Shown in pieces: positions 9,728 through 50,172 of a stretch of 64,000 bases of DNA (position 1 is the stretch's first letter; each line of letters starts with the position of its first letter). The DNA lies in contig CAWGYD010000005.1 in the NCBI GenBank assembly GCA_963826785.1, positions 32,001 through 96,000 of the forward strand, given 5' to 3'. A program made the translations under genes and the position numbers. This DNA is from an uncultured delta proteobacterium (GTDB lineage: Bacteria; Desulfobacterota; Desulfobacteria; Desulfobacterales; Desulfosalsimonadaceae). The notes under the pieces were generated by a model. It searched no databases and was not told the origin of the DNA. It was given only the letters and a program-made list of their open reading frames with translations.

Positions 9728-9737
9728 GGAGGCCGGC

Positions 9738-14244: not shown

Positions 14245-14289
14245 AATCAAAATGCTCTCAATGGTCTATATTTGTAAAAAGATTCCGAT

Positions 14290-27934: not shown

Positions 27935-28049
27935 TATTGGTTCAGCAATAAACCGTGTTCATCACTACATATCTACTACAAACTAAGTTGGTTATAGACT
28001 CCGGTTTTCACCGGAGTGACGAACTTTGGACTTTTTACGGGTTCATCAA
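27855..28049. repeat. 79-bp direct repeat (27855-27933 and 27971-28049)
   Basis: 77/79 identical; the second copy is the right part of the MITE-like element. Confidence 0.9.
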
Positions 28050-28075
28050 ACTTAAACACATCAGGAAAGCAGATC

Positions 28076-28732
28076 ATGAAAGATAGATACTCAATTGTTG
28101 GGCCTTTTTATGACCTTATGTCAATCGTTTACAGCTTCAATCAAATAGACAGATGCAAAATCGCCATGCTTGACCGGATCAAGCCCGACAGCAAAGTTCT
28201 GTTCGCCGGCGTGGGGCACGGCATTGATGCAATAGCAGCCGCTGAACTCGGTGCAAAGGTGACGGTTGTTGATTTGTCGGCGACAATGCTGGAAAGATTC
28301 AACAAGAGAATCGGAAACAAAACATTTACAAATCCGATCCGGCAGCTTCATCAGAATATCCTTGAGACAGATGAATTCGAAACGTACGACATGGTGTTTG
28401 CTCACTTCTTTCTCAATGTGTTTTCAGAAAAAATGATGATCGAAGTTCTTGGCCACCTGACCAAGCTTGCGAAGAAGGAAGGATTCGTAGTGGTGGGTGA
28501 TTTCACACCACCCAAAGGGAATTGGATCGCCAGATTTTTTCAAATTCTTTACTGGCGCATGGCGGATCTGTTTTTCTGGATGGCCACTAAAAATGCACTT
28601 CACCCCGTATATGATTATCAAAAGCACATGCAGGATCTCGGTCTCAAAATAAAAACCGTAAAATATTTCAGAATGCTTTTTGATGAACGGTACTATTCCA
28701 TACTGGGACAGAAAGCGCCACTCACTCAATAA
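28076..28732 (+). CDS. Class I SAM-dependent methyltransferase
   Basis: VLFAGVGHG, VVDLSATML, YDMVFAHFFLNVF and VVGDF. ATG at 28076; the track's upstream start lies inside the repeat. Confidence 0.85.
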   Translation: MKDRYSIVGPFYDLMSIVYSFNQIDRCKIAMLDRIKPDSKVLFAGVGHGIDAIAAAELGAKVTVVDLSATMLERFNKRIGNKTFTNPIRQLHQNILETDEFETYDMVFAHFFLNVFSEKMMIEVLGHLTKLAKKEGFVVVGDFTPPKGNWIARFFQILYWRMADLFFWMATKNALHPVYDYQKHMQDLGLKIKTVKYFRMLFDERYYSILGQKAPLTQ

Positions 28733-28768
28733 AAGATTATCAACGATACTGATATCGCTCATAAGACA

Positions 28769-29761
28769 ATGATATTACTACTTCCCACGTCAAAAAGCAC
28801 CAGCCGGTTCTCTCTTGAAGAGAGAATGTCATACCTTAAGGAATACGGCAGTCACTGCATGGCTTTTTCATTGCTTCAGCCGGGAATAGGATACTTTGAT
28901 GTTCCGGGAAAAGGATTTATCGCATATGAGGAAAAATGGGGTCGGCGGGCGGTATTAGCCGAACCGGTGTGTCATAAAAGCGATCAGCAAACACTCCTTG
29001 GCGAATTCCTGAAAAAGGGCGCACCTGCGGGGTTTGCCCAGGTATCTGAACCCGTTGCCCGACTCCTGCATGAGGAATTTGGTTTTTTTGCGACTCAATT
29101 CGGTATTGAATCGATCATCGATTTGCAAAACTGGGACCTCAAGGGCAAAAAAAAGCAGATCCTGCGGACATCGGTTAATCAAGCCAGGAAAAAGGGAATA
29201 TCCATCCAGGAAAATTATGATGAAAAAAGACACCATCAACTTACAGGGGAATGGCGTCAGACAAGGAAAGTGAAAAGCAGAGAAATCAGATTCCTCATCA
29301 GACCCATGAAGATGGATTGCGAGGATTCAACGAGAAAATTTTTCGCTTATCAGGGCGATGAACTCATTGGACTGATATTCTTCGATCCGGTCTACTCAAA
29401 CGGTAAAATTATCAGCTATGTTCCAAATATATCAAGATTCAGCCCGTTATTCAGGCAGGGGATCTTCTATACCATCATGATTCACGCCATGGATATTTTC
29501 AAAAAGGAAGGGGTCGAGCAGATACATCTGGGGCTTTCCGCATTTGCAGTTGATGACGCGAATCAGTATTATGAAACGGTGATACCCAAAAAACTGGTCC
29601 GGTTTTTATATGAATATGGCAATGGGATTTACAGTTTTAAAGGCATTCATTTTACAAAATCGCGATTCAGTGGAAAAGAGTACCCGACGTTTTGTTCTCA
29701 TAAAGGCAAATTCCCGGTCAGGGAAATTATCACCCTGTTTAAAATTTCAAACTTTTTTTAG
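28769..29761 (+). CDS. Stand-alone DUF2156 / LPG-synthase C-terminal (GNAT-like aminoacyl-tRNA transferase) protein
   Basis: AEPVC, GIESIIDLQNWDLKGKKKQILRTSVNQARKKG, IHLGLS and YSFKGIHFTKSRF resemble the MprF catalytic domain; no membrane domain. Confidence 0.75.
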   Translation: MILLLPTSKSTSRFSLEERMSYLKEYGSHCMAFSLLQPGIGYFDVPGKGFIAYEEKWGRRAVLAEPVCHKSDQQTLLGEFLKKGAPAGFAQVSEPVARLLHEEFGFFATQFGIESIIDLQNWDLKGKKKQILRTSVNQARKKGISIQENYDEKRHHQLTGEWRQTRKVKSREIRFLIRPMKMDCEDSTRKFFAYQGDELIGLIFFDPVYSNGKIISYVPNISRFSPLFRQGIFYTIMIHAMDIFKKEGVEQIHLGLSAFAVDDANQYYETVIPKKLVRFLYEYGNGIYSFKGIHFTKSRFSGKEYPTFCSHKGKFPVREIITLFKISNFF

Positions 29762-29797
29762 CGGCCATTCATGAGCCTTAATTTCAGGAGATAGATT

Positions 29798-31339
29798 ATG
29801 GACATACCGTCAGTATTTCTTAAAAAACTTTACGCCTCCGGAAGCCTCGCAAACGACGAAAAAGGCATTCGCTTCAGCCTTACCAATCCCCTTGGCGACG
29901 CGACCCTGACGGGAATGACGAAGGTTGAAATCGACGGAAAAGAGATGCCGCTTGATAAAGTTGTGGCAAACGTTGAAGGGCGGCCGGTGAAGGCATCGGA
30001 GGTGGATAAAGACAATCCCATCCAGTTCCGACTCGGTCAGACAGTCGACATCCATGTCCAGGCGGATCCGCTTGAAACGGGGAAAGCCTATTGCCTGCGG
30101 TTTGCTTTTGAAACAGCACCGTTCGGCCCCTTGAAGTTTGACGTTGATGATACCATTGTCGAAGACGGTGGCGTCCAGGTAAAGATACCGCACGACAGGG
30201 CGCATAACTACGATCCTGACATTATCGAAAAGCGGCAGACATTCATTGAATCTTACACCGGTGTAAAACTTCAGCATATTAACAAATACTCATTCGACCC
30301 GAAATTGACCCAGGGGAATATTGAAAACTTTACGGGGGTTGCCCAGATTCCGATCGGGCTTGCCGGACCTTTGAAAGTGAACGGCGAGCATGCCAGCGGC
30401 GAATTTCTGATTCCGCTGGCCACCACGGAAGGCACACTGGTCGCCTCCTACAACCGCGGCATAAAGATGATCAACTTGAGCGGCGGTATTACCACCACCA
30501 TATTGGATGATATGATGCAGCGGGCGCCGGTTTTCTGCTTTGACTCCGCCCGCAGGGCACTTGCCTTTTCCAAATGGATCGATGAAAATATAGAAGAAAT
30601 CAGAAAACAGGCCGAAGCAACCTCCAATGTGGCCAAACTCATCGACATTCAAAAATTCCTTACCAGCAAGTTTGTTAACTTGCGCTTCAACTATGCCACC
30701 GGAGATGCGGCCGGGCAGAACATGGTGACGTCCGCCACGTTTGCGGCCTGCACCTGGATTGCGGATCATTTTGACGGTATCCGGCGCTATTACATGGATG
30801 GCAATATGACCACGGATAAAAAGACATCCATGATCAATACCATGCATACGCGCGGCAAGCGTGTCGCAGCTGAATTGATCCTCAAACGGGATCTGCTGAT
30901 CGAGCACCTGAGAACTGATCCTGAAGCCTGTGAATATTATCTGAAGGTTGCAAGTCTCGGCACATTCATGGCCGGCGGCACCAGCAACGGCGTTCAAAGT
31001 GCAAATGCCATTGCTGCGCTTTTCATGGCGACCGGGCAGGATGTGGCGAATGTGGTGGAATCTTCAACCGGTATGGTCCATATGGAAATTACACCGGAAG
31101 GAGATCTTTATGCCTCGCTGACCATCCCTTCGCTGATCGTCGGTACTTACGGCGGCGGCACCGGACTCCCCACCCAACGAGAATGCCTTGAAATTTTAGG
31201 ATGTTATGGCAAAGGAAAGGTTCTCAAGTTCGCCGAAATTGCTGCCGCCGTTGCAGCGGCCGGAGAAATATCACTCGGCGCAGCGGTATCTTCTCTTGAA
31301 TGGGTATCGGCCCATGAAAAATACGGGAGAAACCGCTGA
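29798..31339 (+). CDS. Class I HMG-CoA reductase homolog with an extra N-terminal domain of about 120 aa
   Basis: ENFTG, PLATTEGTLVAS, DAAGQNM, GNMTTDKK, ATGQD, GTYGGGT, GEISL and C-terminal AHEKYGR. Confidence 0.88.
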   Translation: MDIPSVFLKKLYASGSLANDEKGIRFSLTNPLGDATLTGMTKVEIDGKEMPLDKVVANVEGRPVKASEVDKDNPIQFRLGQTVDIHVQADPLETGKAYCLRFAFETAPFGPLKFDVDDTIVEDGGVQVKIPHDRAHNYDPDIIEKRQTFIESYTGVKLQHINKYSFDPKLTQGNIENFTGVAQIPIGLAGPLKVNGEHASGEFLIPLATTEGTLVASYNRGIKMINLSGGITTTILDDMMQRAPVFCFDSARRALAFSKWIDENIEEIRKQAEATSNVAKLIDIQKFLTSKFVNLRFNYATGDAAGQNMVTSATFAACTWIADHFDGIRRYYMDGNMTTDKKTSMINTMHTRGKRVAAELILKRDLLIEHLRTDPEACEYYLKVASLGTFMAGGTSNGVQSANAIAALFMATGQDVANVVESSTGMVHMEITPEGDLYASLTIPSLIVGTYGGGTGLPTQRECLEILGCYGKGKVLKFAEIAAAVAAAGEISLGAAVSSLEWVSAHEKYGRNR

Positions 31340-31423
31340 TGAAAACCGCTCATTTTATATAATTTCGTTTTTGTGCAACAGGCCGAAGCATCCTGCCACT
31401 GAACCTTTGAGGAAGTTGAATTC

Positions 31424-33067
31424 ATGCAGCGTCAGTCCCTGGCTTCTATCGGTTTCTGGAATCCGACATCATCTTACCCTGCATTTTCAAGAAAAGATCT
31501 GCTGTCGGTAATTCCACTGGTGCGCGAACCGGTTCACGTCGTTCAGGATGAATCAAACGGGCGACTCGGGCTGTCATTGGCGGGAGAGGTTTTTCAGACA
31601 ACCGGTGCGCGAAATACCCATTATCGACTGATGGCATCCCTTCCCGCACTCTATCCGGAATGGCTGGGCGACAGGTCATTTAACGAGGTGCACGGCGTCC
31701 GGTTCCCCTATGTTGCCGGTGCCATGTTTCGGGGTATCGCATCCGCCGAAATGGTCATTGCAATGGCAAAAACAGGAATGATCGGTTTTTTCGGCGCTGC
31801 CGGGCTATGCATCGATGATATTGAAAAAGCCATCCAAAAAATCAAATCCGCCATCGGCCACGCGGGATTGCCCTGGGGCAGCAATTTGATCTATTCACCC
31901 AATGACCCTGAACTGTCGGAAAGGGTGGTTGATCTTTACCTTCGGGAAGGGGTGAATCGCATATCCGCCTCTGCATTTATGTCTCTTACGCCAAGCATCA
32001 TACGATATGCAAGCACAGGATTATCTGCAGACAGTCAGGGAAACATCAACAGAAGAAATTTTGTTTTTGCAAAACTTTCACGACCGGAAGTGGCGCGATT
32101 GTTCATGTCCCCGGCGCCAAAATCCATTCTGGATCTTCTGGTTAAAAATGGCAAACTGACCCAGGCAGAAGCTTTTTTGGCATCCAAAATACCGGTTGCC
32201 GAAGATATTACCGTTGAAGCGGACTCGGGCGGCCATACGGACAATCGACCCCTTACCGCCCTGCTCCCGACGATTCTTTCGATGAGAGACGATATATCAT
32301 CGGCAAACAGCTATGTCCGGCCCATACGGATCGGTGCTGCAGGGGGATTGGGAACGCCGTCGGCAGTTGCCGCCGCCTTTTCGATGGGGGCCGCATATGT
32401 GCTGACCGGTTCCGTTAATCAGGCAGCCATCGAATCGGGCTTGTCTGATGCAGGGAAAAAAATGCTGGCAATGGCCGATGTCGCCGACGTGACGATGTCG
32501 CCTGCGGCTGACATGTTCGAACTCGGGGTAAAAGTCCAGGTGCTAAAACGCGGTACCATGTTCTGCAACCGGGCGGCGAATCTTTATACGATCTATTCCC
32601 AGAACACTTCCATCGATACCATTCCAGAAGATGTCAGGGCCCAACTGGAAAAAGATGTATTTAAAGCACCGCTGGAAAAAATATGGGCACAAACCCTTGA
32701 TTTCTTTTCTCAACGCGATCCAAGTCAAATCGAAAAAGCTCAGAAAAATCCCAAACAGCGCATGGCGTTGATTTTTAAATGGTATCTGGGCAATTCAGCC
32801 AATTGGGCGATCTGCGGCGATCCGGATCACCGGATCGATTATCAAATTTGCTGCGGCCCCTCCATGGGGGCGTTTAATACATGGGTAAAAGGGTCATACC
32901 TTGAAAAAACTGAAAATCGACGCGTATCCGATATTGCCCTCAACCTTCTTGAGGGTGCGGCGGTTGTCACCAGGGCACAGCAGTTTCGAAGCTATGGCGT
33001 ACCGGTACCCGGCGAGGCATTCAACTTCAAGCCCCGTCCGCTTTCCTATAATCATGCCTCAAAATGA
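31424..33067 (+). CDS. pfaD: PUFA-synthase enoyl reductase (PfaD / myxobacterial Pfa1)
   Basis: YVAGAM, SASAFM, DITVEADSGGHTDNRP, IGAAGG, YVLTGSVNQ, PAADMFELGVKVQVLKRG and DYQICCGP. Confidence 0.93.
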   Translation: MQRQSLASIGFWNPTSSYPAFSRKDLLSVIPLVREPVHVVQDESNGRLGLSLAGEVFQTTGARNTHYRLMASLPALYPEWLGDRSFNEVHGVRFPYVAGAMFRGIASAEMVIAMAKTGMIGFFGAAGLCIDDIEKAIQKIKSAIGHAGLPWGSNLIYSPNDPELSERVVDLYLREGVNRISASAFMSLTPSIIRYASTGLSADSQGNINRRNFVFAKLSRPEVARLFMSPAPKSILDLLVKNGKLTQAEAFLASKIPVAEDITVEADSGGHTDNRPLTALLPTILSMRDDISSANSYVRPIRIGAAGGLGTPSAVAAAFSMGAAYVLTGSVNQAAIESGLSDAGKKMLAMADVADVTMSPAADMFELGVKVQVLKRGTMFCNRAANLYTIYSQNTSIDTIPEDVRAQLEKDVFKAPLEKIWAQTLDFFSQRDPSQIEKAQKNPKQRMALIFKWYLGNSANWAICGDPDHRIDYQICCGPSMGAFNTWVKGSYLEKTENRRVSDIALNLLEGAAVVTRAQQFRSYGVPVPGEAFNFKPRPLSYNHASK

Positions 33068-33076
33068 GCCGACATT

Positions 33077-36000
33077 ATGTCTTCCCCAAAAAGCATAAGA
33101 ACAAAAAAATCCGATGCCGACACCCGGAATCGGGTATCTGAAACAAAATCAACCCCAAAAGCGCCTCCCATAGCCGTCATCGGCATGGGTTGTCTCTTTC
33201 CGGGGTCTCAAGATAAAGAGGGGTTCTGGCGCGATATCACGGCCGGTCGGGATACGATAACGGAAGTGCCGCCCAGCCATTTTCTCATCGATCAATACTA
33301 TGACCCGGATCCTTCCGTCCCCGATAAAACATATTGCAGAAGAGGCGCTTTCCTTTCTCCGGTTGAATTTGATCCCATGGCATTCAGTATTCCGCCGGCC
33401 AACCTGGCGGCCACCGATACGTCGCAATTGCTAAGTCTTCTGGTCGCTGAACAGGTGCTGACGAATGCGTTTGACGGAAAACTGAAAAGCATGGACCGCA
33501 GCCGGATCAGCGTGATCCTGGGGGTGGCTGCCGGTCTGGAGCTCCTTGGCGAAATGGCAAACCGGCTCGTGAAGCCCAACTGGATCAAAGGGATGCGTGA
33601 GGCCGGTCTTCCGGAAAATGAAATCGAAGATATCTGCAAACGGATCATGGCGACCCATTCGCCCTGGAAGGAAAGTACGTTTCCCGGTCTTCTCGGAAAT
33701 GTAGTTGCCGGACGTATTGCGAACCACTTTGATCTGGGCGGCATCAACTGTACGAATGACGCCGCGTGCGCCAGCTCTTTATCAGCGATGTCACAGGGGC
33801 TTAATGAACTTTATGCGGGAACGTCGGATGTGGTGATCGTCGGGGGAGCGGACACCAATAACGACACCTTTTTGTTTGTCAGTTTTTCAAAGACACCGGC
33901 GCTGTCCCCCACGCATGACTGTCGACCCTTTTCCGACAAAGCAGACGGCATGGTTCTCGGAGAAGGCATCGGTATGGTCGCGATCAAGCGGCTCGATGAC
34001 GCGGAACGTGACGGCGATCCGATTTACGCGGTGATACGCGGCATCGGGGCATCATCGGACGGCAAAGGGACCAGTATTTATGCGCCGCTCCCAAAGGGTC
34101 AGGCGCTTGCGCTCCGCCGTTGTTACGCGGCATCCGCTTACGGACCTGAGACCGTAGAGTTGCTTGAAGCCCATGGGACCGCGACCAAGCCGGGCGATAA
34201 AGCTGAAATCGAGGCGCTTACCAGCGTTTTCGGCCATGAAACCAATCGGACGGACAAACAATGGTGCGCCCTTGGATCGGTAAAATCCCAGATCGGTCAC
34301 ACCAAAAGTGCAGCCGCTGCAGCCGGTATCATCAAAGCCGTCATGGGCATCCGTCACAAGGTGCTGCCGCCGACGATCAAGGTTGAGCGGCCCAATCCGT
34401 TGCTGAAGCTTGAAGAAAGTCCATTTTATGTGAACACGCAGTGTCGGCCATGGGTAAGGGATGATTCTCACCCGAGAAGAGCTTCGATAAGTTCTTTTGG
34501 TTTCGGCGGAACTAATTTTCATTTAACTGTTGAAGAATATAAGGGGCCGGGCAAATCCGCCTGGCGACTCCGCAACGTTCCGACGGAGCTCGTCATATTG
34601 GGTGCCCAAAATGCCAAAGCGCTTGAAGATCTTTGCCGGCAGGCAGCCAAAGACCTGAACACCGAAGGTGTCCTGACCTATATCGCAAAAACATCGCAGG
34701 AAGCCTTTGATTCATCATGCCCGGCCAGATTGGCAATCGTTGCATCCAACGAAAGAGATCTTGAAACCAAGCTTCATTATGCGGCAAAAGCCCTCTCCGA
34801 AAAACCCGGGAGCGGATTTTCATTGCCCAATGGCTTGTTCTGTGCGGTTGAAAAAGCAGAGCCCGGCGATATTGCTTTTCTGTTTCCCGGGCAGGGCACC
34901 AGCGGTTGTCTGGATATGGGTGCCGATCTGGCGATGCAATTTAACGACGCCATGAATATTTGGGATTTTTCCGCATCGTTTGACAAAAAACGCGGCGCCA
35001 GGGAATTTCTGCACAAAGTGGTTTTTCCCATTCCTGCCTTTACCGAAGCGGAAAAGGATGCACAGCATGCAAAACTCGCCCGGACCGAATGGGCCCAGCC
35101 CGGCGTCCTGACATCCAGCATATCCATGTCGGCGATTCTTAAAGGCCTTGGCATCAAGCCGGATTGTGTGGGTGGGCACAGCCTTGGCGAAATCACCGCA
35201 CTTTATGATGCCGGTGTGCTTGATCTGGAAAGCCTGCTCAGTGTCTGCTTCAAACGGGGCGAATTGATGGCCGGCGCAGCACAAAATCCCGGCACCATGA
35301 CCGCTGCACTATGCGATATTGCCAAAGCACAGGCCGTTCTGGACAAAATCAAAAACAAAAATAAAATCATCATTGCAAATCACAACAGCCCGAGTCAGGT
35401 TGTTTTTTCCGGTCCTGTCCCTGACATGGAAGCGGTTGAAACGGTCCTTAAAGCAGAAAACATAAAATTCAGACGTCTGCCGGTTTCCGCTGCATTCCAC
35501 TCGTCTCTGATGAGCGAGGTGTGCGCTTCATTTCTGGCATACATGAAGGAATTTGATTTCAAAAAACCAACGGTTCCGATTTATTCGAATGCGACCGGAA
35601 AGCCGCATCAAAACAAACCGGACAAGATCCGCGAAGCACTGGCCAATCAGATCGACCATCCTGTTCAATTTGTAAAAGAAATCGAATCGATGTATGCAGC
35701 CGGTGTCCGCACCTTTATCGAAGTCGGGTCAGGTGCCGTCCTCACCAGTTTTGTCGACAAAATTTTAAGCGACAAACCCCACACCGCCATAAACATGGAC
35801 ACCAAAAAAGAACACGGCATCACAGGCCTTTGGAAAGCACTTGCAAGACTTGTCATTTCCGGCGTAACGCCCGATTTTTCATATTTATGGAAAGAATATG
35901 CCCCAATAGAGGATCCCCGCAAAAGAGAAAAGCCCAAATTTTCAGTCATGCTATCAGGAACGAACTACGGAAAACCCTACCCGCCGGCCGGCGGAATAAG

Positions 36001-39000
36001 CGACTACCCGAAACCGAATCCACCCAGAGTTCGAGAAGCGGATAAGGAGCCAGACAAATTGAATGCTGCTGTTGAGAACAGGGTAAGTAATACAGGTATC
36101 AACGTTAATACGGACCTTGGAAGCCAGGCGGCAGGGAACCAGGCGACTCAAGCATCAATACGTCCACAGGCACCCCCTCTGCCGTTTGCTCAGGAACCCA
36201 TTTCCGTCCAAAGATCAGCGCCGCCGCATACCCCCACCTGCAATATCAAATCCGGTGAAAGTGCATGGGTTAAAACATTTCAGGATATTCAGCGGCAAAC
36301 CACCGAGGCGCACAGTGCCTATCTGAAATTTATGGCGGACAGCCATCTCAGCTTTCTAAAAACCGCCGAATCATCCAATATCGCCTTCAGTTCGCTTCTC
36401 ACAGGGGGCACCGGCCTTTCAGGCGGAGTCGACATCCAACAGCCGCCCATGAATTCAAGTGCAGGGATCACCGCTGCACCCGAACCAAAACCTGTTCATC
36501 GTCCGTCCATCCCGGCTGCATCGATGGAAATGGCATCCCCCACACCTGAGCCAGAGGCGCCGTATCAGTCGATTAAAGCCCCGACTGCTGAAGTACCGGT
36601 CTCCGCTCCGGTGGAAACACCGGTGGTTGCTTCCAGTCCTTCACCCCCTGCTTCGTCGCCCACCGGCATTGATTTTACGGAAATGCTCCTTGACGTGGTT
36701 GCGGATAAAACCGGCTACCCGAAGGAAATTTTAACCCTTGAAATGGATCTTGAGCTCGATCTGGGGATTGACTCCATCAAGCGCGTTGAAATTTTCTCCG
36801 CCATCAATGAAGAAAATCCGTGGATCCCGGAAGTCGATCCGTCGGTCATGGCGGAAATCAAAACACTTGGCGATGTGGTCGATTTTATCGGCCGATACGC
36901 ACCTTCAATTCCTGCTTCAGCCCAACCGCAGATTGTTGAATCGCCGGTCGCCCAACCGGCGGCAACGCCGGTAGCTGCTTCCAATCCTTCAGCCCCTGCT
37001 TCGCTGCCCACCGGCATTGATTTTACGGAAATGCTTCTTGACGTGGTTGCGGATAAAACCGGTTACCCGAAGGAAATTTTAACCCTTGAAATGGATCTTG
37101 AGCTCGATCTGGGGATTGACTCCATCAAGCGCGTTGAAATTTTCTCCGCCATCAATGAAGAAAATCCGTGGATCCCGGAAATCGATCCTTCAGTTATGGC
37201 GGAAATTAAAACACTCGGCGATGTGGTCGATTTTATCGGCCGATACGCACCTTCAATTCCTGCTTCAGCCCAACCTCAGGTTGTTGAATCGCCGGTCTCC
37301 CAATCGGCGGCAACGCCGGTAGCTGCTTCCAATCCTTCAGCCCCTGCTTCGCTGCCCACCGGCATTGATTTTCCGGAAATGCTCCTTGACGTGGTTGCGG
37401 ATAAAACCGGCTACCCGAAGGAAATTTTAACCCTTGAAATGGATCTCGAGCTCGATCTGGGGATTGACTCCATCAAGCGCGTTGAAATTTTCTCCGCCAT
37501 CAATGAAGAAAATCCGTGGATCCCGGAAATCGATCCTTCAGTTATGGCGGAAATTAAAACACTCGGCGATGTGGTCGATTTTATCGGCCGATACGCACCT
37601 TCAATCTCTGCTTCAACTCCATCACAGGTTGTTGAATCGCCGGTCGCCCAACCGGCGGCAACGCCGGTAGTTGCTTCCAATCCTTCAGCCCCTGCTTCGC
37701 TGCCCACCGGCATTGATTTTACGGAAATGCTCCTTGACGTGGTTGCGGATAAAACCGGCTACCCGAAGGAGATTTTAACCCTTGAAATGGATCTCGAGCT
37801 CGATCTCGGCATTGACTCCATCAAGCGCGTTGAGATTTTCTCCGCCATCAATGAAGAAAATCCATGGATCCCGGAAGTCGATCCCTCGGTCATGGCTGAA
37901 ATCAAAACACTCAGTGATGTGGTCGATTTTGTAAAACATTCACTTGATAAGGCCGTCTCCACCTCATCCGAGCCATCGACCCCTGAAGCGCAGCGTTTGG
38001 AAACATCAGCAACCGAGACAATTCCGGGCATTGACAGATATGTGCTTCGCCTAACGCCGGTCTCCTTTTCCGGTTTTTCCATGCCCGGCCTCCTGGAAGC
38101 CCGCCATTTATGTATCACAAACGATGAAACCGGCATTGCCAAGGCGTTGGCCGCAGAACTTGAGAAAAATGGCATAACTGCAACGGTTGTTGAAAATGTG
38201 CCGGATAACTGCGATGGGTTGATTTTCCTTGGCGGGTTGCGGAAAATTGCAAACCCGCAGGACGCAATTCATGTCAACCACGAAGCATTTGCCGCCGCCC
38301 AGAAAATCGCCGCGCAATTGACCCAATCCGGCGGCATTTTGGTGACCGTCCAAAACACCGGGGGTGATTTTGGATTATCCGGACAGGCAGGTGATCGTGT
38401 CTGGCTTTGCGGACTTACCGGCCTGGTCAAAACCGCGGCCATTGAATGGCCGAAAGCATCGGTCAAAGCAATCGACATTGATCGCGGAAAGTTGTCGGCG
38501 AAAAAACTGGCGGCCGCCATTTGTCTTGAACTGATGACCGGCGGCCCGGACCTGGAAGTCGGGATCAAATCGGACGGCAGCCGGTATTGTCTGAAAAGTT
38601 ATCGCAAACCCGCCAGCGAGTCCGGCCATATGCTTAATGAGAATGACGTCATCGTCGCGTCCGGCGGCGCCAGGGGAATTACGGCAAAAGCACTCATCCA
38701 GCTGGCCCGGGATTTTCATCCCCGTCTGGTGCTGCTGGGCCGAACCCATCCGGCTGATGAACCGGCCTGCTGCCGGGGAGCTGCAACAGACGCCGAGTTG
38801 AAAGTGGCGCTTCTTCAAGCGGCCAAGGCAGGTGGGAAAACCGTAAAACCGATGGATCTTGAAAAACAGGCGCACCAGATCCTTGCGGCCCGGGAAATGA
38901 AATCAAACATAGACGCCATGAGACAAGCCGGATCTGATGTCAAATATGTGGTGGCGGATGTGCAGAATGAAACTGATATTTCAAACGCGCTTGACACGGT

Positions 39001-40303: not shown

Positions 40304-40334
40304 ATCCGCCCCGATAACAGGAGAACATCAATAA

Positions 40335-43300
40335 ATGCCCTTTGAGCCGATTGCCATTGTCGGACAATCCTGCCTTTTCCCCGGAGCACTGAATCCAGAA
40401 GCACTCTGGGAAAAAATAGCCGCCGGTAAAAATTTGCTGTCAAAAGTCCCCGAAGGGTATTGGCGGATCAGGCCTGATCTCGTCATGGCGCCACCGCGAC
40501 AAAATGCCATTGATATCACCTGGTGCGACCAGGGCGGATATATCAGCGGATTTGAGTCGATTTTCAATCCCGATGGTTTTGCAATCCCCAAAAAAGAAAT
40601 TTTAAAATACGGTCATCTGGTGCACTGGCTCCTTCACACGGCACGCGAAGCATTAAATGACGCCGGGCATGCCAGTGCCGATGGTCTCAATGCCGGGATT
40701 GTCTTCGGTAATTTATCCTATCCCACGCCTGCCATGTCCGAATTTGCCGAATCCGTCTGGCTTGATGCACAGGCAAGCCGTTTTTTGGGCGGTAACGCCA
40801 GGCATATCGCCAATGTTGCACAACCCCATGCGGTCAATCGGTTCATGTCCGGTCTGCCCGCGCATGTTGTGGCCCGGGCGCTCGAATTGAATAGAGGTGC
40901 TTTTGCCATCGATGCGGCTTGTGCGTCATCTCTTTTCGCCATTAAAATTGCCTGCGACCGATTGCACGATCGAAAGGCGGACCTGATGCTCGCCGGGGGT
41001 GTACAGGGGGCCGACGATTTGATTATCCACATCGGTTTCTGTACCTTGCAGGCCATGAGCCAGACCGGCCGAAGCCGTCCGTTTCATAAAAACGCGGACG
41101 GCCTCGTCCCCGCGGAGGGCTGCGGTTTTGTGGTTTTAAAAAGACTTGCAGATGCAGTCAAATCAGGCGATGAAATTCACGGCGTCATCAGAGGGATCGG
41201 CCTTTCAAACGACGGGAGAGGACGCGGTCTGCTTTTCCCATCGGCTGACGGCCAATTCAGGGCCATGCAGAAAGCGTATCAGATGTCCGGGATTGATCCG
41301 TCACAGATTTCATTGCTGGAGTGTCATGCCACGGGCACCAAAGTCGGTGATGAAATTGAATTGGAAAGCACCAGCCGGATTTTTAATGGTTTACGCCAGA
41401 TTCCCATCGGCACCATAAAATCAAATATGGGCCATCCCATCACCGCCTCCGGAATCGCCGGCATTTTGAAAGTCACCGGCGCGATGAAGGCGGGCACCCG
41501 GCCGCCGACCCTCCACGTGGATGAACCCACCGAAAAGTTGAAAAACACGCCGTTTCGCCTGATTAAAGAACCGGAACCATGGCCATCAGACGCTCCGAGA
41601 ATCGCCGGGATCAGCAACTTCGGCTTCGGCGGAAATAATGCGCACCTGATTCTGGAGCAATGGGACAAAAAATCGTACCAAAAACCGCTCCCGGCAAAAT
41701 CACTTCGAAAAACCGATATTGCCATTGTCGGCATGGGCGCCGTCGTTGCTTCAGGGAACGGATTGGAAGATTTCATCAAAACCATTTTCTCCGGCAATCC
41801 GGCGCTTACGCAAGAAGATGACGGAAAAATGGCCGGAAAGGCAGTTTCTTTTGAACTGCCGATCATGGGGCTCGGGTTCTTCCCGGCGGCCCTCGATCAA
41901 ACCCTGCCACAGCAGCTTCTCATGTTGAAAGCCGCCATGGATGCACTTGATGAGGTGGATATATTCCCGAAAAAGCGGGCCGGTGTGTTTGTCGGGATGG
42001 GGTGTGATTGCGAGGTGACCCGATCCGGAATGTGCTGGCGGCTTCCGCAATTTGTCTGCGACTGGCTGAAAACAAAAGAGATGACCCCGGAAATGAAGGA
42101 CTGGATTGAATCGGTCAAGAACGATCAGATCAATCCGGCCCGTGAGGCTTCAGCCATCTTAGGGGCCATGCCGAATATCGTGGCCAACCGGTTAAACAGC
42201 CAGTTCGATATTGAAGGCCAGAGCTTTACGATTTCATCTGAGGAGCTGTCCGGCATACGGTGCCTTGAAACGGCCATACGCGCACTTCAAGCCGGTGAAA
42301 TCGATGCCGCCATCGTTGGCGCCGTCGACCTGTCCTGTGAAACCGTTCATATGGCAGCGGCCCGGGAAGTACTCAATAACGAAAGCCAAATTCCCGGCGA
42401 TGCCGCCGTTGCGCTGATCTTAAAACGCAAATCAGATGCGATATCGGATGGTGATCAAATATATGCGCTTTTCCCCGGTAAAAAAGATGAGATCGCCGAT
42501 GATCCCATGTCTAAGCTGGAATGGTCATGCGATACAGCCGGACAACTCATTGAACCGCTGGTCGGGCATTCACATGCTGCGTCGGGGTTGCTCCATGTCG
42601 CGACCGCGGCACTGGCATGCCATTTCAGAGCGCAGCCGGCTGGTATTGGAAATAAAGCCATCCCCTGGCTTTCATCACAAAAACGAACCGCCGATGTGAC
42701 GATCAACGCCCTGGGAGGAGAATCCTCAAGAATAACTGTAACCGAAGATACAGACATCTCACCGGGGCGTCTGGTATTATCGCCTTTCCCAAAACTCCAC
42801 ATTTATTCCGGCAATGATAATACAGAAATATTAGAAAATCTCGATAAAGGCCGCGAATCAGATACCGGGCCGGCGCGACTGGTCCTTGTTGCAGAGCATC
42901 CGTCGTTGCTTTCAGACCTTCAGCAACGCGCACGGATGCTTCTTGAACAAGATCGAGATAAGCCTGATTTTTTTCTAAACGAGGGTATTTATTACTGCCG
43001 TCGGCCAATTGAAGGTGAACTTGCATTTGTATTTACAGGCGCTGCAGGCATATACCCCCAAATGGGAAGCGATTTGTTTCTTGCGTTCCCGGAAGATGAT
43101 TCGAGGCGGTGATAACGCGTTTCGGCCTGAACACCGATAAAATCCGCCAATGGATGCGCGATACGGACGAAGACGCTATTCCAACCCCCGAAATCATGCT
43201 GTGGCGCAGTTCGTTTTTGTCACAAGTCCATGCCGTCATTTCGCAAAAATATTTAGGCCTCAAACCGCAGGCCGCCATTGGTTTTTCCTCCGGAGAATCC

Positions 43301-46300
43301 AATTCCCTCTTTGCCATGGGCGCATGGCACGATATGGGACAGATGGCCGCTGATCTTGAACATAAGAACGTCTATGCCCATGAAATCGGCGGTGCGTTCA
43401 ATGTCGCCAAAAAAGCCTGGAATTTAAAAGGAAGAAAAAAAGCGGTCTGGACGAACTGGGGGATTCTCGCCCCGGAGAGCGAGGTCAGAGAAGCGCTTGA
43501 CGTCGGAACCTCTGGCGCACCTGATCATCATCAACGCGCCGGGCAGTATGGTCATCGGCGGAGAGCGGGGCGCCTGCGAACGGATTATCGATAAAATCGG
43601 TAAAAGCAAAGCATATCCGCTGGCCTACAATATCATCAACCACTGCCCTGAATTATCCCAATACGCGGATGAATGGCGAACACTTCATCGCCGTGACACG
43701 GCAGACGTTGCCGATGTCCGGTTTTACTCCGCCGCGACATGCAGCCATTATCATCCCACGGCTGAAAAATCGGCCCGGGCCATTCTGGATATGGCGACCC
43801 GCACGCTCGATTTTCCCCGGATGATTGAAAACGCCTGGAAAGACGGGGTTCGAATTTTCCTTGAACACGGCCCTCGCAATAACTGCAGCCAGTGGATCGA
43901 TCAGATCCTTGAGGGGAAGGATCACCTGGCGGTCTCGCTGGATCAACGCGGCCGATCTTCCCTGACCCAGATGGTGCATGCTGCGGCACAACTCAAGTCG
44001 GCCGGGGTGTCCGTCAATTTCGATGAGTTTGAAAAACGGATAGCGTCATCCGATTTGAGCAAAAATGATCGTCATAACAGTAAACAGGATAAACAGTTTC
44101 CCACCAGAACCTATCGCGTTCATCCTTCCAGAATTGAATTGCCTGAAATTCCCCGGGCCGGCGGAAAAGTTATCCATTTTTCGCCGGCCCAAACCGATGC
44201 ATCCGGTATATCTGAGAAAAGCGGGGATACAGATCCGGAAGATATGCAAATGATGCCGCCGGCCCCCCACCTGCCGTCCATTATGGAAGAGATCGAGGCA
44301 TCAGCGAAACAGACTGAGGACACACAGGAGATATCGGATATTTTGAAAAACAATCCAGAAACGGATCTTTTTACAGAGCGTATTTTGGCGGATATCGCAT
44401 CGCAAAATGCCGATATATCCAAAGTGCATCAGGATTTTCTCGCACAGCAGTCCAAAGTCCATGAACGTTATCTGGATCACCGCTTAAATGTGTTAACCCT
44501 GCTGGGAAAGCTCGCCGGGCAGGAAATTTTTCCTTCTTCTCCTGAAGCAGGCGCATCCGCGATTCCGAACCGGAAAAACGCTTCTTGTCAACCGCCTGGC
44601 AAACCTGTTCGTGATAATGAGGCCAAACCGGAAATCAAATCTGGTCGCAAATCAGATACCCCAAGTGCCCCGCCTGTTTCTGCTAACCCGGATCATGATT
44701 CCGGTGCATCCGATGCATCCGAAAATTTTATCGACCCTGTGAATGATGGCGTTGTTCATAAGCATGTCGATCCGGTCAGAGAAAAGTTTTCCCATGAACG
44801 ATATATCGAACCGACCGGGCCGACATTTTCCAAAGAACAGCTTGAAATTCTGGCGTCGGGCAACATATCAGACGTTTTCGGGCCGATGTTTAAGATTCAG
44901 GACAACTATCCCAGGCAGGTGCGCCTTCCTGAATATCCGCTTCTGCTGGCCGACAGAATCACCGGGCTGGATGCAGAACCCGGCTCAATGGGCAAAGGCG
45001 TCATCTGGACGGAAACAGACGTTGTTGCGGGGGCCTGGTACTTAAATGATATTTACATGCCTCCCGGCGTCACCGTTGAGTCCGGCCAATGTGACTTGAC
45101 CCTTGTTTCATACCTGGGTGCGGATTTTAAAAATCAAGGCAAACGCGTATATCGGCTGCTCGGGTGTGACCTCATCTATTACGGCGAACCGCCGAAGGTC
45201 GGCGATACGCTCTGCTACCAGATCCACGTGGATGGTCACGCGAATATCGGCGAAACCCGGATTTTCTTTTTCCACTATGACTGCCGGATCAATGGCGAAC
45301 TGCGTCTGTCCGTCAGAAATGCGCAGGCCGGGTTTTTTTCCGATGAAGAACTGGCCCGATCCGGCGGCATTCTCTGGCGTCCTGAAACCGGTGAGCACAA
45401 GCCGGATGATGAGGCGATTCTTGTTCCGCCATATGTTAAATGTACCCGAAATCAATTTTCCAAAGACCTGGTGAAAGCGTTTTCCGAAGGCCGCGTGTTT
45501 GAATGCTTCGGCCCCGGTTTCGAGTTGACCGAGACCCACTCAAAAACGCCCAAACTCCAGTCCGGCATGATGCTGCTCCTGGATCAGGTCACCCGGTTCG
45601 ACCCGAAAGGCGGCCCATGGGGCCGCGGGTATCTCAAGGTGGAGAATGATATCCCGCCGGATGCATGGTATCTGACATGCCATTTTAAAAACGATCCCTG
45701 CATGCCGGGAACCTTGATGAGCGACGCCTGTTTGCAGAGTCTCGCGTTTTATTTGACGGCCATGGGGTTTACCATTAAAAGGGACGGCTGGCGTTTCGAC
45801 CCCGTACCGGATGAAATATATCATATCAAATGCCGGGGGCAGGTCACTCCGGAAAGTCATAGACTGGTGTATGAAGTTTTTGTGGAAGAGATCATTGCCG
45901 AGCCATGCCCCACCGTCTATGCCGATATTTTAGCCACCTGCGACGGACTGAAAATTCTGCATATTCGCCGCATGGGGCTGCGTCTGGTGCCCGATTATCC
46001 GCTGGATTGCTGGCCGCACCTGCTTGAAGGGCATGTTGAAAAACATCCGGTTGCCCGAATCGGGGATATGGAATTCGGATACAGGTCGCTTTTGGCCTGT
46101 GCGTTCGGCAGACCGTCAGATGCTTTCGGCGAGCTGGGGAAACCGTTTGACGGGCCGCGGCATATCGCCCGTCTTCCCGGCCCCCCCTACCATTTCATGT
46201 CACGGGTCGTATCCATTCAAGCAACCATGGGCAGCATGCGCACCAATGAGACGATCGAGGTTGATTACGATATTCCGCCGGATGCATGGTATTTCGATCA

Positions 46301-48410
46301 AAACGGCAACCGCACCATGCCTTTTTGCGTGCTCATGGAAGTTGCGCTGCAGCCCTGCGGCTGGCTGGCGGTGTTTGAAGGCGGTCCCGCCGCATCAGAA
46401 AAACCGTTGTACTTCCGCAACATGGATGGCACCGGTACGCTGACCAAAGAAATTTTTCCGGATTCCGGAACGATCCGCACCCGTACGACCCTCACCAATA
46501 TCATCAATTTCTCGGGCTTTATTCTCATTAATTTTGATGTTGAATGTTTTATCGCCGACGCCTGTATTTATAAAATGAAGACGGGGTTTGGCTTTTTTCT
46601 CAAAGAAGCCCTTGACCATCAGGTGGGACTGCCCGCCACGGATGAGGATCGCCAGTGGCTCGAGGAACCCTGTGATTTTCTGGTGGAACTGACAGACAGA
46701 CCGCCCGGGTATTGTGAAGTCGCGCCCTGCCTGCCAAAACCCATGCTGTTAATGATTGATCGTGTGACCGGTTTCTGGCCGAAAGGCGGACGCAAAGGCA
46801 TCGGTCGTCTCAGGGCTGAAAAAAAAGTTGATATCAGTGAATGGTTTTTCAAAGCCCATTTCTTTCATGACCCTGTTCAACCCGGTTCCCTTGGGGTGGA
46901 GGCCATGATACAGACGCTTCAATTTTACATGTGCCACACCGCCATGGCCGAAGGAATTAAAAATCCGCGGTTTGTACCCATCGCCATTGATAAGCCGGTC
47001 ACCTGGAAATACCGGGGCCAGGTGACCCCAGTCATTAAGCGAATCTCCGTTGAGATGGATATTATCGAAACGGGACGGGATGAAAAGGGTTCCTTTGCCG
47101 TTGCCGAAGCATGGCTGTGGGCGGATCAGCTAAGAATTTTTCATGTAAAAGATTTATGCATGTATATTGTGCCCGGAGGCCCTGACGCATATGAGAAAAA
47201 GAGAAACAATAATGAAAGCGGGGATCATTCCGGTGCGAAAAGCCAAAAACATTCCGTAAAAAACAGTGTCATTAAATATATCACGGGTACCGTGCCCATC
47301 GATCATGTCGATCCCGCTTTCATTCATCTTTCCAGAGACAAAAAAACAGCTTCATGTGACTTAATGCCCCTTTCCCGTTTTCCAATCATGATTCAGAAAA
47401 CAGACAGCAAAAAGCCCTGCATCGAAGTGGGAGCGCCTGTACTGGATTATGAGCGGATTTTTGAATATGGCCGGAAATTATTTAATATCGGTCCCTGGTT
47501 ATTTGAAAATATTACCCGCTCGCTATGGGAACGGTTTGTAAGATATGTGATTATCGAAGATCCCAACGCCTTTGAAAAAGTCTCGAACCGCAGTCTCCTT
47601 TATCTTGGAAATCACCAGATCCAGGTGGAATCCATGCTTTTTCCATTATTGGCCCAGGTACTGACAAAACGCCGAATTGTCACCATTGCCGATGCAGCCC
47701 ACAAAACCGGTTGGATCGGCGCTTTAAATGATATTATCTACTCGCATCCGGGGATTTTTTACCCCAAAAATATCGTATACTTTGATCAGACCAACCGAAA
47801 ATCCCTGTTTGATATCATTGATAAATTCAAAGAACAGATTCAAAAAGAAGGGATATCCGTATTTCTGCACACCGAAGGCCGACTTGGACTGACATGTAAA
47901 ACGCCCGTAAAGGTGTTAAGTTCGGTTTTTATCGACATGGCCCTTGAATCCGATTTACCGATCATACCGGTCCGGTTTACCGGCGGGCTTCCGGTTGAAA
48001 AACTTGAAAAGACCCTCGACTTTCCGGTGGGGTACGGAAAACAGGACTACTATATCGGCAAACCGATTTTACCTGAAACACTCAGGGCGTTAAATTATGC
48101 GGACCGCAGAAAGACGGTCATTGATGCCATCAACAGGCTTGGTGGTTTAAATGAACAGGAAACCCCTCATGCGCCTGACCCGCATTTCACGAAAGAAGTT
48201 GAATCATGGCAGAAACAGACAGGCGCCTCCGAAGTAAAAGCAGTAATTTTTAAAGCCTTGGAGATGTTAAACGATCCCCCGGAAACAAACCTGCACAACC
48301 TGCTGGTGAAACGCGGCAATAGAGCGGCAGTTCAGTATGCAGATGATGAAAGCGGCCTCTGGTTGGAAAAACTGTCAGAGTGGCTATTCAGTTCGAAGGG
48401 ATATATATAA
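40335..48410 (+). CDS. PUFA synthase subunit KS-CLF-AT-DH'/DH/DH'/DH-AGPAT (PfaBC / myxobacterial Pfa3-like), broken near 43095 and 43500
   Basis: KS DAACASS, ECHATGT and MGH; CLF SEELSG; AT GFSSGE in the middle ORF; FabA-like CHFKNDPCMPG and AHFFHDPVQPG; C-terminal LGNHQIQVES, HTEG and PIIPV. Confidence 0.88.
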
Positions 48411-48420
48411 GGAATTCATA

Positions 48421-50172
48421 ATGCCAAAGACCCCCATAAATAAACAATCCTCCCAAAAAACCGACGGTCCGCCCACTTTTTTTTTAAAAGATAGAGATAT
48501 TGAAGAACAGTTACTGATCAAGGACAGGGCCATTGCTTCGGCCATTTATGGAATTGGGATCGGCGATCTTGAAGGAAATATTATCTATGTGAATGATGCT
48601 GCCCTGCGGATGTGGGGAGCGGGAGACCCTTCGGAAATTCTGGGCCGATCTGCCCTGGAATTTGCCAGAGATAAGGAACAGGCGGAGCAGATTTTAATTG
48701 AAATGGTGCAAAACGGGCACTGGGAGGGCGAAATTGAAGGGTTTCGAAAAGATGGCACGCCGGCCACCATTCATATGGCGGCCAATATCGTCTACAATGA
48801 AAATGGCGAGCCCATCTGCACGATGGATTCCTTTATCGATATCACCGATCGAAAGAAAATGGAGGAAGAGCTCCGTATCAAAGACTTTGCCATCGCCTCT
48901 TCAATTTACGGCATCGGCATGGGCGATCTGGAAGGCAATATCACCTATATCAATAATGCGGCGCTGCAAATGTGGGGAGCGGATGACCCTTCTGATGTGA
49001 TTGGCCGATCTGCCCTGGAACTTGCCAGAGATAAAGACCAGGCGGAGCAGATATTGCTTGAAATGCTGACAAAAGGGAGCTGGGAAGGTGAAATTGAAGG
49101 GTTTCGAAAAGACGGTACGCCGGCCACCATCCAAATGGCAGCCAATATTGTCTATAATGAAAATGGCGAGCCCATCTGCACAATGGACTCTTTCATTGAC
49201 ATCACCGATCGAAAAAAAATGGAGGAAGAGCTTCGCATCAAGGATTTTGCGGTCTCATCGTCCATCCAGGGAATTGTCATCGGTGATTTGATGGGGAATA
49301 TCACGTATGTGAACAGCGCCTTTCTTGAATTGTGGGGCGATGATGATGCTTCTGAAATCATTGGAAAATCAGCCATCAGCTTTGCAGTGGATCAAGAACA
49401 GGCGGAAAAAGCCCTGGAAGCCGTTTTGGACAAGGGTTATTGGAGGGACGAAGTCGATGTAATGATCAAAGACGGCTCCATCATCACCGTTCTGGTTTCA
49501 GCCAATCTGGTGAAAGGTGCCGAGCATAATCCGATCTGCATGATGGCATCTTTCATGGATATCACGGATCGTAAAGTAGCCGAAGCAAAACTCGAAGCGG
49601 CCAACGAAGAGCTTGAAGCACGGGTAATGGAGCGAACCCGTGAACTTCTAAGGATGAATGAACGACTCGTTGCCGAAGTTGAAGAACGCAAGCTGTCTGC
49701 AAAGGCGTTGATCGAAAAAGAGGAGGAGCTTCGTCTGCAAACGATAAATCTTCAGGAAACAAACACCGCTTTGAAAATTTTATTAAAACAGCGGGAACAG
49801 GACAAGGAAGATCTTGAAGACAAAGTCTTGTCAAATGTCAAAAATTTAATTTTACCCTACATCGAAAAACTAAATGAAACCCGGGTAAACTCCAAACAAA
49901 AAACGTATCTGGACATTCTTGAGTCAAATGTTAATGAAATCGTATCCCCTTACCTGCAAAAATTGTCGGGGCATTTATTAAAAAACCTCACCCCCATGCA
50001 GGTCCAGGTGGCCGACCTGGTTAAAGCCGGCAAAACAACCAAGGAAATTGCCGATCTGCTTCGTCTGTCCGACAGAGCCATTGAATTTCATCGAAACAAT
50101 ATCAGGGATCAGCTGGGATTAAAAAGCAAAAAGATCAATTTAAGAAACTTCCTGCTGTCTCTGACGCAATGA
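48421..50172 (+). CDS. 3xPAS - coiled coil - LuxR HTH transcriptional regulator
   Basis: Three PAS/PAC units ending DITDRK at a 360-bp period; C-terminal LTPMQVQVADLVKAGKTTKEIA..IEFHRNNIR. Confidence 0.88.
   Translation: MPKTPINKQSSQKTDGPPTFFLKDRDIEEQLLIKDRAIASAIYGIGIGDLEGNIIYVNDAALRMWGAGDPSEILGRSALEFARDKEQAEQILIEMVQNGHWEGEIEGFRKDGTPATIHMAANIVYNENGEPICTMDSFIDITDRKKMEEELRIKDFAIASSIYGIGMGDLEGNITYINNAALQMWGADDPSDVIGRSALELARDKDQAEQILLEMLTKGSWEGEIEGFRKDGTPATIQMAANIVYNENGEPICTMDSFIDITDRKKMEEELRIKDFAVSSSIQGIVIGDLMGNITYVNSAFLELWGDDDASEIIGKSAISFAVDQEQAEKALEAVLDKGYWRDEVDVMIKDGSIITVLVSANLVKGAEHNPICMMASFMDITDRKVAEAKLEAANEELEARVMERTRELLRMNERLVAEVEERKLSAKALIEKEEELRLQTINLQETNTALKILLKQREQDKEDLEDKVLSNVKNLILPYIEKLNETRVNSKQKTYLDILESNVNEIVSPYLQKLSGHLLKNLTPMQVQVADLVKAGKTTKEIADLLRLSDRAIEFHRNNIRDQLGLKSKKINLRNFLLSLTQ

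Follow-up and report, generated by a model that had tools for sequence, protein, structure and literature searches.

What does a bacterium make with a block of seven genes in which a methyltransferase, a putative aminoacyl-tRNA transferase and a homologue of HMG-CoA reductase stand directly upstream of a polyunsaturated fatty acid (PUFA)-type synthase? The block lies in a 64,000-nt stretch from an uncultured member of the Desulfobacterales (contig CAWGYD010000005.1, positions 32,001-96,000; the whole of this stretch is referred to here as the window). Our answer, judged from sequence and given an even chance, is that two lipid modules are combined in one same-strand block: a fatty-alcohol aminoacylation triad, consisting of the methyltransferase (MT), a DUF2156 protein and a reductase of fatty acyl-CoA (FcrA), and a Type-L Pfa synthase whose acyl chain is a plausible feedstock for the triad. 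Genes were called from the open reading frames (ORFs) of the plus strand, and protein identities were taken from Pfam and NCBIfam profiles, each judged against its family cut-off. The features of the block are as follows:

27855-27933 and 27971-28049: a 79-nt dispersed repeat in two direct copies, bordering the block on its 5' side (repeat search).
28076..28732, plus strand: class I S-adenosylmethionine-dependent methyltransferase (MT), 218 amino acids; Methyltransf_12/25/11 above cut-off.
28769..29761, plus strand: freestanding DUF2156/LPG_synthase_C protein, putative aminoacyl-tRNA transferase, 330 amino acids; PF09924, 145.5 bits.
29798..31339, plus strand: FcrA-type fatty acyl-CoA reductase (the 'HMGR homolog'), 513 amino acids; PF25653 N-domain and PF00368 at 416.8 bits.
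31424..33067, plus strand: PfaD/Pfa1 enoyl reductase; 637.8 bits with TIGR02814, for which the cut-off is 449.
33077..40303, plus strand: PfaA/Pfa2, KS-MAT-4xACP-KR-PS-DH (Pfam).
40335..48410, plus strand: Pfa3, KS-CLF-AT-FabA-like DHs-PlsC/AGPAT-like (Pfam), with two compensating frameshifts in the assembly.
48421..50172, plus strand: PAS-PAS-PAS-LuxR(GerE) regulator (Pfam).

An original prediction, made from the sequence, had described seven same-strand genes separated by gaps of 36, 36, 84, 9, 31 and 10 bp, which matches the ORF map exactly. The gene identities that it gave were also right by Pfam and NCBIfam, and the tight, operon-like arrangement is borne out by the intergenic gaps. A scan of 27400-34000 for terminator-like sequences found 7 against 7.4 expected from shuffled sequences, with no intergenic terminator, and promoter-like sequences in the same interval showed no excess over shuffles (10 against 9.3 expected).

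By every testable sequence signature, the HMG-CoA reductase homologue is an FcrA-type fatty acyl-CoA reductase. FcrA was described as a fatty acyl-CoA reductase derived from HMG-CoA reductase (HMGR), with an N-terminal 'Lad' domain of ~10 beta strands (Grossi et al, 2025, ISME J; PMC11948995; this and the other papers discussed here are cited from partial texts). The family keeps the catalytic residues of HMGR; Ser684 is replaced by an acidic residue, the HMG-carboxylate-binding Lys735 by a small one and Leu862 by Trp, changes that were tied to the loss of HMG-CoA activity (PMC11948995). Ser684 and Lys735 act in HMG binding by HMGR (PMC9500038). In the window protein, alignment to 6hr7 and 8ecg places the equivalents of the catalytic Glu559, Lys691, Asp767 and His866 at E176, K341, D415 and H506, which are invariant in 10/10 homologues, while the three diagnostic positions are occupied by D334 (for Ser684), A385 (for Lys735) and W502 (for Leu862). 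Across homologues, the Ser684 site is Asp or Glu in all nine that have the N-domain or a DUF2156 neighbour, and a short, unlinked homologue (L087) retains Ser; the Lys735 site holds a small residue and the Leu862 site Trp in 10/10. The N-domain scores 104 bits with PF25653, and an AlphaFold2 model (pLDDT 83) predicts it to be all beta, with 9 strands of at least three residues. A fold search with that model ranked the small beta subunits of C-glycoside deglycosidases highest (8qvc_B and 7dnm_B, TM ~0.67); we regard this match of a predicted structure as a generic beta-sandwich likeness that is silent on function.

The genomic setting is also that of an FcrA, whose hosts lack the mevalonate pathway (PMC11948995). 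The window gene is the sole PF00368 gene of its genome, an incomplete metagenome-assembled genome (MAG) in which profile searches found no mevalonate kinase (MVK) over cut-off and no HMGS_C match, and in which two IspH genes are present. In the six block-bearing genomes (this one and five relatives, all incomplete MAGs), MVK exceeded its cut-off in none and HMGS_C was unmatched in five, the sixth (G004) scoring 39.3 bits against a cut-off of 25.1. The published FcrA is like the window protein in its Lad and HMGR-like domains, its catalytic residues, its three substitutions and a host without the mevalonate pathway, and the earlier suggestion that the homologue reduces a thioester to an alcohol is backed by FcrA-family biochemistry. 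The gene contexts differ: FcrA was reported from wax-ester (WS/DGAT) and possible ether-lipid contexts, whereas the window gene lies between DUF2156 and a Pfa synthase. FcrA and FarA are often found without a wax synthase and must be used by other pathways, and FcrA together with PlsC-like genes was suggested to serve ether-lipid synthesis (PMC11948995). The partial text of that paper contains none of the words 'aminoacyl', 'polyketide' or 'polyunsaturated'.

Two further FcrA-like genes were observed outside such a setting. The short L087 gene (G097:C138, 5922-7991, minus strand) lacks the N-domain and lies directly 5' of an ICMT/PEMT-family membrane methyltransferase, in a genome with a better MVK-like match (113 bits) that is still below cut-off. 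In L091 (G327:C46, 7108-10222), a second N-domain FcrA copy without DUF2156 or MT stands downstream of a gene for a CDP-alcohol phosphatidyltransferase, at a distance of ~1 kb.

The DUF2156 protein is well above the PF09924 cut-off (145.5 bits against 27.5) and has no membrane or flippase domain. Its best PDB match is 4v36, a Lys-phosphatidylglycerol synthase domain (E 7e-12), and the alignment takes in the region of the basic helix: LKGKKKQILRT falls on ISGKKRAGLR of 4v36, and KGKKKQxxRT is invariant in 7/7 sequences. A bifunctional MprF was rejected, as the 330 amino acids comprise the domain alone and NF033480 gives 74.9 where its cut-off is 600. The same genome encodes two separate DUF2156 proteins of MprF size (876 and 864 amino acids), and in a quick maximum-likelihood tree a long, fully supported branch parts the window protein and its relatives from both. 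Its sequence therefore places it in a distinct subfamily, far from the MprF-type copies of its own genome. Orthologues from Marinobacter are named in databases only as 'DUF2156 domain-containing protein' or, automatically, as 'phosphatidylglycerol lysyltransferase'.

DUF2156 specificity cannot be read from sequence, according to the authors who characterised ErgS and ErdS, freestanding fungal DUF2156 proteins that aminoacylate the 3-OH of ergosterol (PMC8913301). These enzymes and the bacterial MprF/aaPGS proteins share the PF09924 double-GNAT fold and the basic helix with the window protein (PMC8913301, PMC7334510, PMC6103681). ErgS, too, is freestanding, and it aminoacylates a simple lipid hydroxyl from aminoacyl-tRNA (PMC8913301); unlike MprF, the window protein has no flippase, and its identity to solved MprF domains is ~20-25% by eye. 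What sets it apart from all of them is its linkage to a reductase and a methyltransferase, for which the partial texts on ErgS/ErdS and MprF/aaPGS give no counterpart. A complex prediction for DUF2156 with the FcrA N-domain gave no answer (score 0.00).

That linkage was followed by searching with DUF2156 in a genome collection, which gave 10 loci, and by alignment in metagenomes, which gave 71, the other block proteins then being placed by tblastn. Recurrent neighbours of the subfamily are thioester reductases, which come in three architectures: FcrA, FarA-like and a short NAD_binding_4 type. Clade A, to which the window belongs, comprises 16 loci, which share 72-84% identity and carry the labels Desulfobacterales, Desulfococcaceae or Desulfosalsimonadaceae; in 12 of them FcrA adjoins DUF2156, and contig ends cut off the others. 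Group B comprises 13 loci at 54-63% identity with the order MT-FcrA-DUF2156, FcrA being adjacent in 11, and no pfa genes were found within 10 kb of these loci. Between clades A and B, MT, FcrA and DUF2156 diverge to a similar extent (54-58%, 55-59% and 54-60%, respectively), which fits inheritance as a unit. The FarA-like reductase (NAD_binding_4 plus Sterile) was found at the Marinobacter-type loci (n=49), within 1.5 kb in 6 and at 1.5-10 kb in 29.

The third architecture, the short NAD_binding_4 reductase, overlaps or abuts DUF2156 in L008, L078 and L094. The first of these (7485-10948) comes from a Methanosarcinales MAG, on a contig that also has archaeal FEN1, KaiC and V4R genes; here a gene for a methyltransferase of another type is followed by the reductase gene, which overlaps by its stop with the start of the gene for a DUF2156 protein 51% identical to that of the window. 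L094 (G000:C6:232000-251000, 7614-10016, minus strand) is where the genome of the window encodes its second subfamily member (56% identical); 30 nt beyond it comes a 435-amino-acid NAD_binding_4 thioester reductase, with no MT. We also took an even sample of 401 Desulfobacterota genomes, in which PfaD was present in 31, an FcrA/HMGR-like gene in 15 and the DUF2156 subfamily in 6; five of the eight subfamily loci in this sample (at least 53% identity) adjoin a reductase. Other genes recur convergently beside the group B triad, namely a PF12710 HAD hydrolase (L020, L071, L089) and an amine-oxidase-like flavoprotein (L020, L088, L089). Genes for an aldehyde ferredoxin oxidoreductase (AFOR) and an iron-containing alcohol dehydrogenase (Fe-ADH) are close by in L020 and L088.

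MT is the usual companion of DUF2156. Orthologues of MT (51-84% identity) adjoin DUF2156 in 68 of 70 assessable loci: 13/13 in group A, 8/10 in group B and 47/47 in group D, the Marinobacter type. A locus counted as assessable if its upstream flank reached 2.8 kb or more, or if an MT match was present, which slightly biases the count toward matches. The best NCBIfam equivalog for MT is CpaM (90 bits, cut-off 180) and none passed; PDB searches gave weak, PrmA- and lysine-MT-like matches (E ~0.002-0.005). A PmtA-type phospholipid or betaine-lipid N-methyltransferase was rejected (NF045882, 27.5 against a cut-off of 390), generic class I methyltransferase domains alone passing.

The synthase that follows the triad has the Type L layout, ER / KS-MAT-ACPn-KR-DH / KS-CLF-AT-DH-DH, by Pfam and NCBIfam, and the ACPs of PfaA are four repeats spaced by 348 nt at 36586-37929. 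For the AGPAT-like domain originally assigned to Pfa3, the motifs NHQIQVE, TEGR and PIIPV are kept in 3/3 sequences and PF01553 scores 21.0 bits, below its cut-off of 23, and motif I (NHQIQVE, HX4E) has Glu in place of the usual Asp. The original prediction had named, as grounds for abandoning the link between triad and pfa, that the two never co-occur elsewhere. They do: MT-DUF2156-FcrA is next to pfa in 8/8 related loci with enough flank (L003, L004, L005, L007, L010, L017, L079 and L080), one of which, L003, has the permuted order PfaA-Pfa3-MT-DUF2156-FcrA. An orthologue of the PAS-LuxR gene product, 60% identical, is encoded directly 3' of Pfa3 in L092. In the related genome G003 the order on one strand is holB-PSP1-metG-[MT..Pfa3-PAS-LuxR]-up2-up3, and the window, by comparison, keeps these flanking genes, with its MT..LuxR block inverted in place between them. 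This inversion and the permuted L003 therefore suggest that the seven genes move as a unit. The join of the triad to a Type-L pfa cluster is found only in this Desulfobacterales lineage and, as all the loci form one fairly close clade, the pfa link amounts to about one evolutionary event and two rearrangements.

How might the two modules work together? FcrA would make a fatty alcohol by four-electron reduction of a long-chain acyl-CoA, a reaction shown for the family and predicted here from the sequence signatures. The DUF2156 protein would then esterify an amino acid from aminoacyl-tRNA to a lipid hydroxyl, most likely that of the fatty alcohol or of an alkylglycerol derived from it; we infer the alcohol because of the repeated tight linkage to alcohol-forming reductases and because of the sterol precedent of ErgS/ErdS (PMC8913301). 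MT would methylate the product, probably on the free amino group, which is the weakest of these steps. The Pfa synthase, for its part, would build a long, probably unsaturated acyl chain. Because both modules are fused in this lineage, this chain would be a plausible feedstock for FcrA; the PlsC-like end of Pfa3 could instead, or also, put it on glycerol phosphate.

A wider generalisation is possible, and we offer it tentatively: that MT, DUF2156 and a fatty acyl-CoA reductase form a widespread, undescribed pathway to O-aminoacyl, then N-methylated (cationic or betaine-like) fatty alcohols or alkylglycerols, with aminoacyl-tRNA as donor and with feed from a PUFA-type synthase in one Desulfobacterales lineage. 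If true, tRNA-dependent aminoacylation would for the first time be known in prokaryotes for an alcohol that is neither a glycerolipid nor a sterol, with a range from Marinobacter and several Desulfobacterota to a Methanosarcinales archaeon. It would make tRNA-dependent alcohol aminoacylation a concrete candidate for the 'other pathway' of FcrA and FarA, carry prokaryotic DUF2156 chemistry past glycerolipids and give a function to a gene pair of the cultured, genetically tractable Marinobacter. Anaerobic sulfate reducers, whose amino and ether lipids serve as sediment biomarkers, have pfa-like clusters, and it would also provide a lead on what these make.

Several observations weigh against the two-module reading. 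Three Desulfobacterota genomes of one family (G121, G215 and G327; f51) have MT-FcrA-DUF2156 and no PfaD at E<=1e-80, and the MT-DUF2156 pair is conserved across the genus Marinobacter, where all of the loci are without pfa. In the majority of Marinobacter loci, regulators and a distance of 6-7 kb separate the FarA-like gene from DUF2156, which may be plain genus synteny. Neither a reductase nor an MT was nearby in three of the eight sample loci (L096-L098, extra paralogues) or in L075-L077. The pfa link may itself be lineage synteny only, all pfa-linked loci being 72-84% identical and of one clade. FcrA needs acyl-CoA, and neither a thioesterase nor a CoA ligase is encoded in the block. For MT, no equivalog is informative, and the likeness to PrmA and lysine-MTs is faint. 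WS/DGAT wax-synthase genes exceed their cut-off in 4/4 tested block-bearing relatives (G001, G003, G004 and G005), elsewhere in the genome and in 1-3 copies each; FcrA could therefore merely feed wax esters. Finally, the frameshifts in Pfa3, if real, would mean that the synthase is dead in this organism.

The first two of these points bear directly on what had been proposed. Because the triad or the pair occurs without pfa in Desulfobacterota and Marinobacter, we take MT, DUF2156 and FcrA to be an autonomous module. The original view of them as a pfa-specific tailoring set cannot be kept, and to call the block a 'complete pathway' was an over-reading.

The independence of the triad also suits the alternative that survives best, in which the genes are unrelated neighbours: FcrA would serve wax esters or alkyl-ether lipids, MT and DUF2156 would make methylated aminoacyl-phosphatidylglycerol or -diacylglycerol, and the Pfa chain would go to phospholipids, all under shared membrane-remodelling regulation. 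We consider this a possible account, but not a probable one. The wax synthases of the four relatives are in keeping with it, as is the suggested role of FcrA and PlsC-like proteins in ether lipids (PMC11948995), given that Pfa3 has a PlsC-like domain; moreover, the characterised bacterial DUF2156 enzymes named in the partial texts of PMC8913301 and PMC6103681 all use glycerolipids. Against it stands the abutting or overlapping of DUF2156 by reductases of three architectures in distant lineages (a 4-nt overlap in L008 and gaps of 3 nt in L020, 30 nt in L094 and 36 nt in the window). Likewise, the subfamily has no flippase domain and is distant from the MprF-type copies of its own genome, and the only WS/DGAT trace in the window's own genome is a 27.7-bit fragment in a 72-amino-acid frame (G000:C10:310276-310431).

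A second alternative starts from Pfa3. In the assembly it is not one open frame, two frameshifts having been missed. Frame 0 ends in a stop at 43112 and resumes near 43497, and the stretch with the AT active site is in another frame (43109-43594). DNA alignment with three homologues gives ~+2 nt near 43,097-43,105 and +1 nt near 43,49x, the compensating frameshift zones being near 43,097-43,110 and near 43,497-43,530. In relatives, Pfa3 is a single intact ORF (2721, 2725 and 2771 amino acids). Most likely, the frameshifts are assembly indels, because other genes of the window are split in the same way and because the assembly has 11 contigs at 87.8% completeness; the split conserved genes across the window point to frequent indel errors in the assembly.

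Were the frameshifts genuine, the block would be a decaying remnant with no Pfa product here and at most a functional triad, which we regard as unlikely. The two indels (~+2 and +1 nt), 400 bp apart, do flank the AT active site, and neither falls in a homopolymer. Public reads were also consulted: one run matched 10% of the sampled words and was mapped over 42600-44000, and the sole read-derived contig (151 nt, 43514-43664) spans neither frameshift site. However, the frame is restored by the indels, the conserved AT motif GFSSGESN is still encoded in the 130 codons that separate them, and elsewhere the 8-kb gene is free of stops. The window has at least two more conserved genes that are split alike, lptD among them, and such low completeness in only 11 contigs fits uncorrected indels.

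The split genes themselves can be listed briefly. That for lptD is represented by overlapping ORFs in different frames (54557-55474 and 55332-56972), which cover profile positions 2-139 and 144-378. A YcaO-TPR gene that is intact in L003 (575 amino acids) is split into overlapping ORFs in the window, and two overlapping frames are also found for what are probably a methyl-accepting chemotaxis protein and a periplasmic binding protein. Apart from that of lptD, the split-ORF pairs are 12510-13592 with 13459-14250, 4442-5392 with 5370-6413, and 9621-10091 with 10003-10665.

That the reductase is instead a true HMG-CoA reductase, with a triad modifying mevalonate or an HMG-like small molecule, is highly improbable: Pfam and JGI/NCBI annotation name it so, its catalytic residues are intact and its best PDB match is the archaeal HMGR 6hr7, but as a canonical class I HMGR it was rejected by TIGR00533 (350.5 against a cut-off of 441.8), its Ser684, Lys735 and Leu862 equivalents are Asp, Ala and Trp, the changes tied to lost HMG-CoA activity (PMC11948995), MVK exceeds its cut-off in 0/6 genomes, HMGS_C is unmatched in its own genome and in 4/5 relatives, and IspH is present.

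How much of the two-module block is new? The synthase has a clear precedent in the myxobacterial Type L pfa1-pfa2-pfa3 clusters, which likewise have the ER first, then KS-MAT-ACPn-KR-DH and a fused KS-CLF-AT-DH-DH protein with an acyltransferase-like end (PMC4882568, PMC3098273); in the partial text of one review, AGPAT is found only in myxobacterial type L (PMC4882568). The window cluster departs from these in its anaerobic Desulfobacterales host, its sub-threshold HX4E acyltransferase, its three extra upstream genes and its PAS-LuxR gene. ElbD-type ether-lipid synthesis is similar in that a fatty-alcohol-forming reductase and a PlsC-like domain are encoded together (PMC11948995). It differs in that the window has these on separate proteins (FcrA and Pfa3), with no FadD or AGPS in the block, and DUF2156 and MT are without counterpart in the ElbD system as the partial text describes it.

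In the open-licence PMC and bioRxiv literature we came upon no characterised pfa cluster that includes the triad, in agreement with the original prediction, and no description of a module of MT, DUF2156 and fatty acyl-CoA reductase or of its fusion to pfa. Among reviews of lipid aminoacylation, the partial text of PMC6103681 contains neither 'reductase' nor 'methyltransferase', and that of PMC12945691 mentions no MprF, DUF2156 or fatty alcohol. Cysteine-containing 'BACys' aminolipids have been reported from Desulfatibacillum, their biosynthesis being unknown (PMC11181052); nothing found in the partial text ties them to the window locus. The claim of an undescribed lipid system is partly right. 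Type L pfa, the FcrA family and the DUF2156 family are already known, and it is the three-gene lipid module and its pfa fusion for which no published description was found; a single proven pathway gives way to an autonomous triad plus a pfa cluster.

At its 5' side the block is bordered by the repeat pair listed above, whose two copies are 97% identical and have an internal hairpin. The 79-nt repeat has 63 matches in its own genome, ~30 of them near full length at at least 92% identity. It is a dispersed element resembling a miniature inverted-repeat transposable element or a repetitive extragenic palindrome (MITE/REP-like), because many copies are flanked by opposite-strand matches of ~70% identity, offset by ~57 bp. 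Relative to G003 the block is inverted, and the pair marks one of its edges; a repeat search found no inverted repeats at the two block edges. The GC content is 0.44-0.46 at 26001-30000 and 48001-50000, against 0.51-0.57 in the surroundings, and the low-GC stretch spans a 285-amino-acid ORF, the 79-nt repeats, MT, DUF2156 and the PAS-LuxR gene. That ORF (26651-27508) has no Pfam or NCBIfam match, and in 26400-28200 Rfam gave only a sub-threshold mir-205 match, which we take as chance.

Neighbouring genes were considered as clues to the amino acid, and three were rejected. The racemase of Marinobacter is MurI, exceeding the TIGR00067 cut-off; the aminotransferase upstream of the own-genome paralogue (L094) is NifS/IscS-like; and metG beside the block belongs to the conserved housekeeping run holB-PSP1-metG. 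Further along the window, at 58703-60967 on the plus strand, is a gene for a 754-amino-acid fusion of a PALP (cysteine-synthase-like) domain to a cysteinyl-tRNA synthetase (CysRS); in G003 this fusion is kept at 79% identity, at ~8 kb from the block. CysRS-like genes number three in the window's own genome, the canonical one lying elsewhere (C10, 586 bits).

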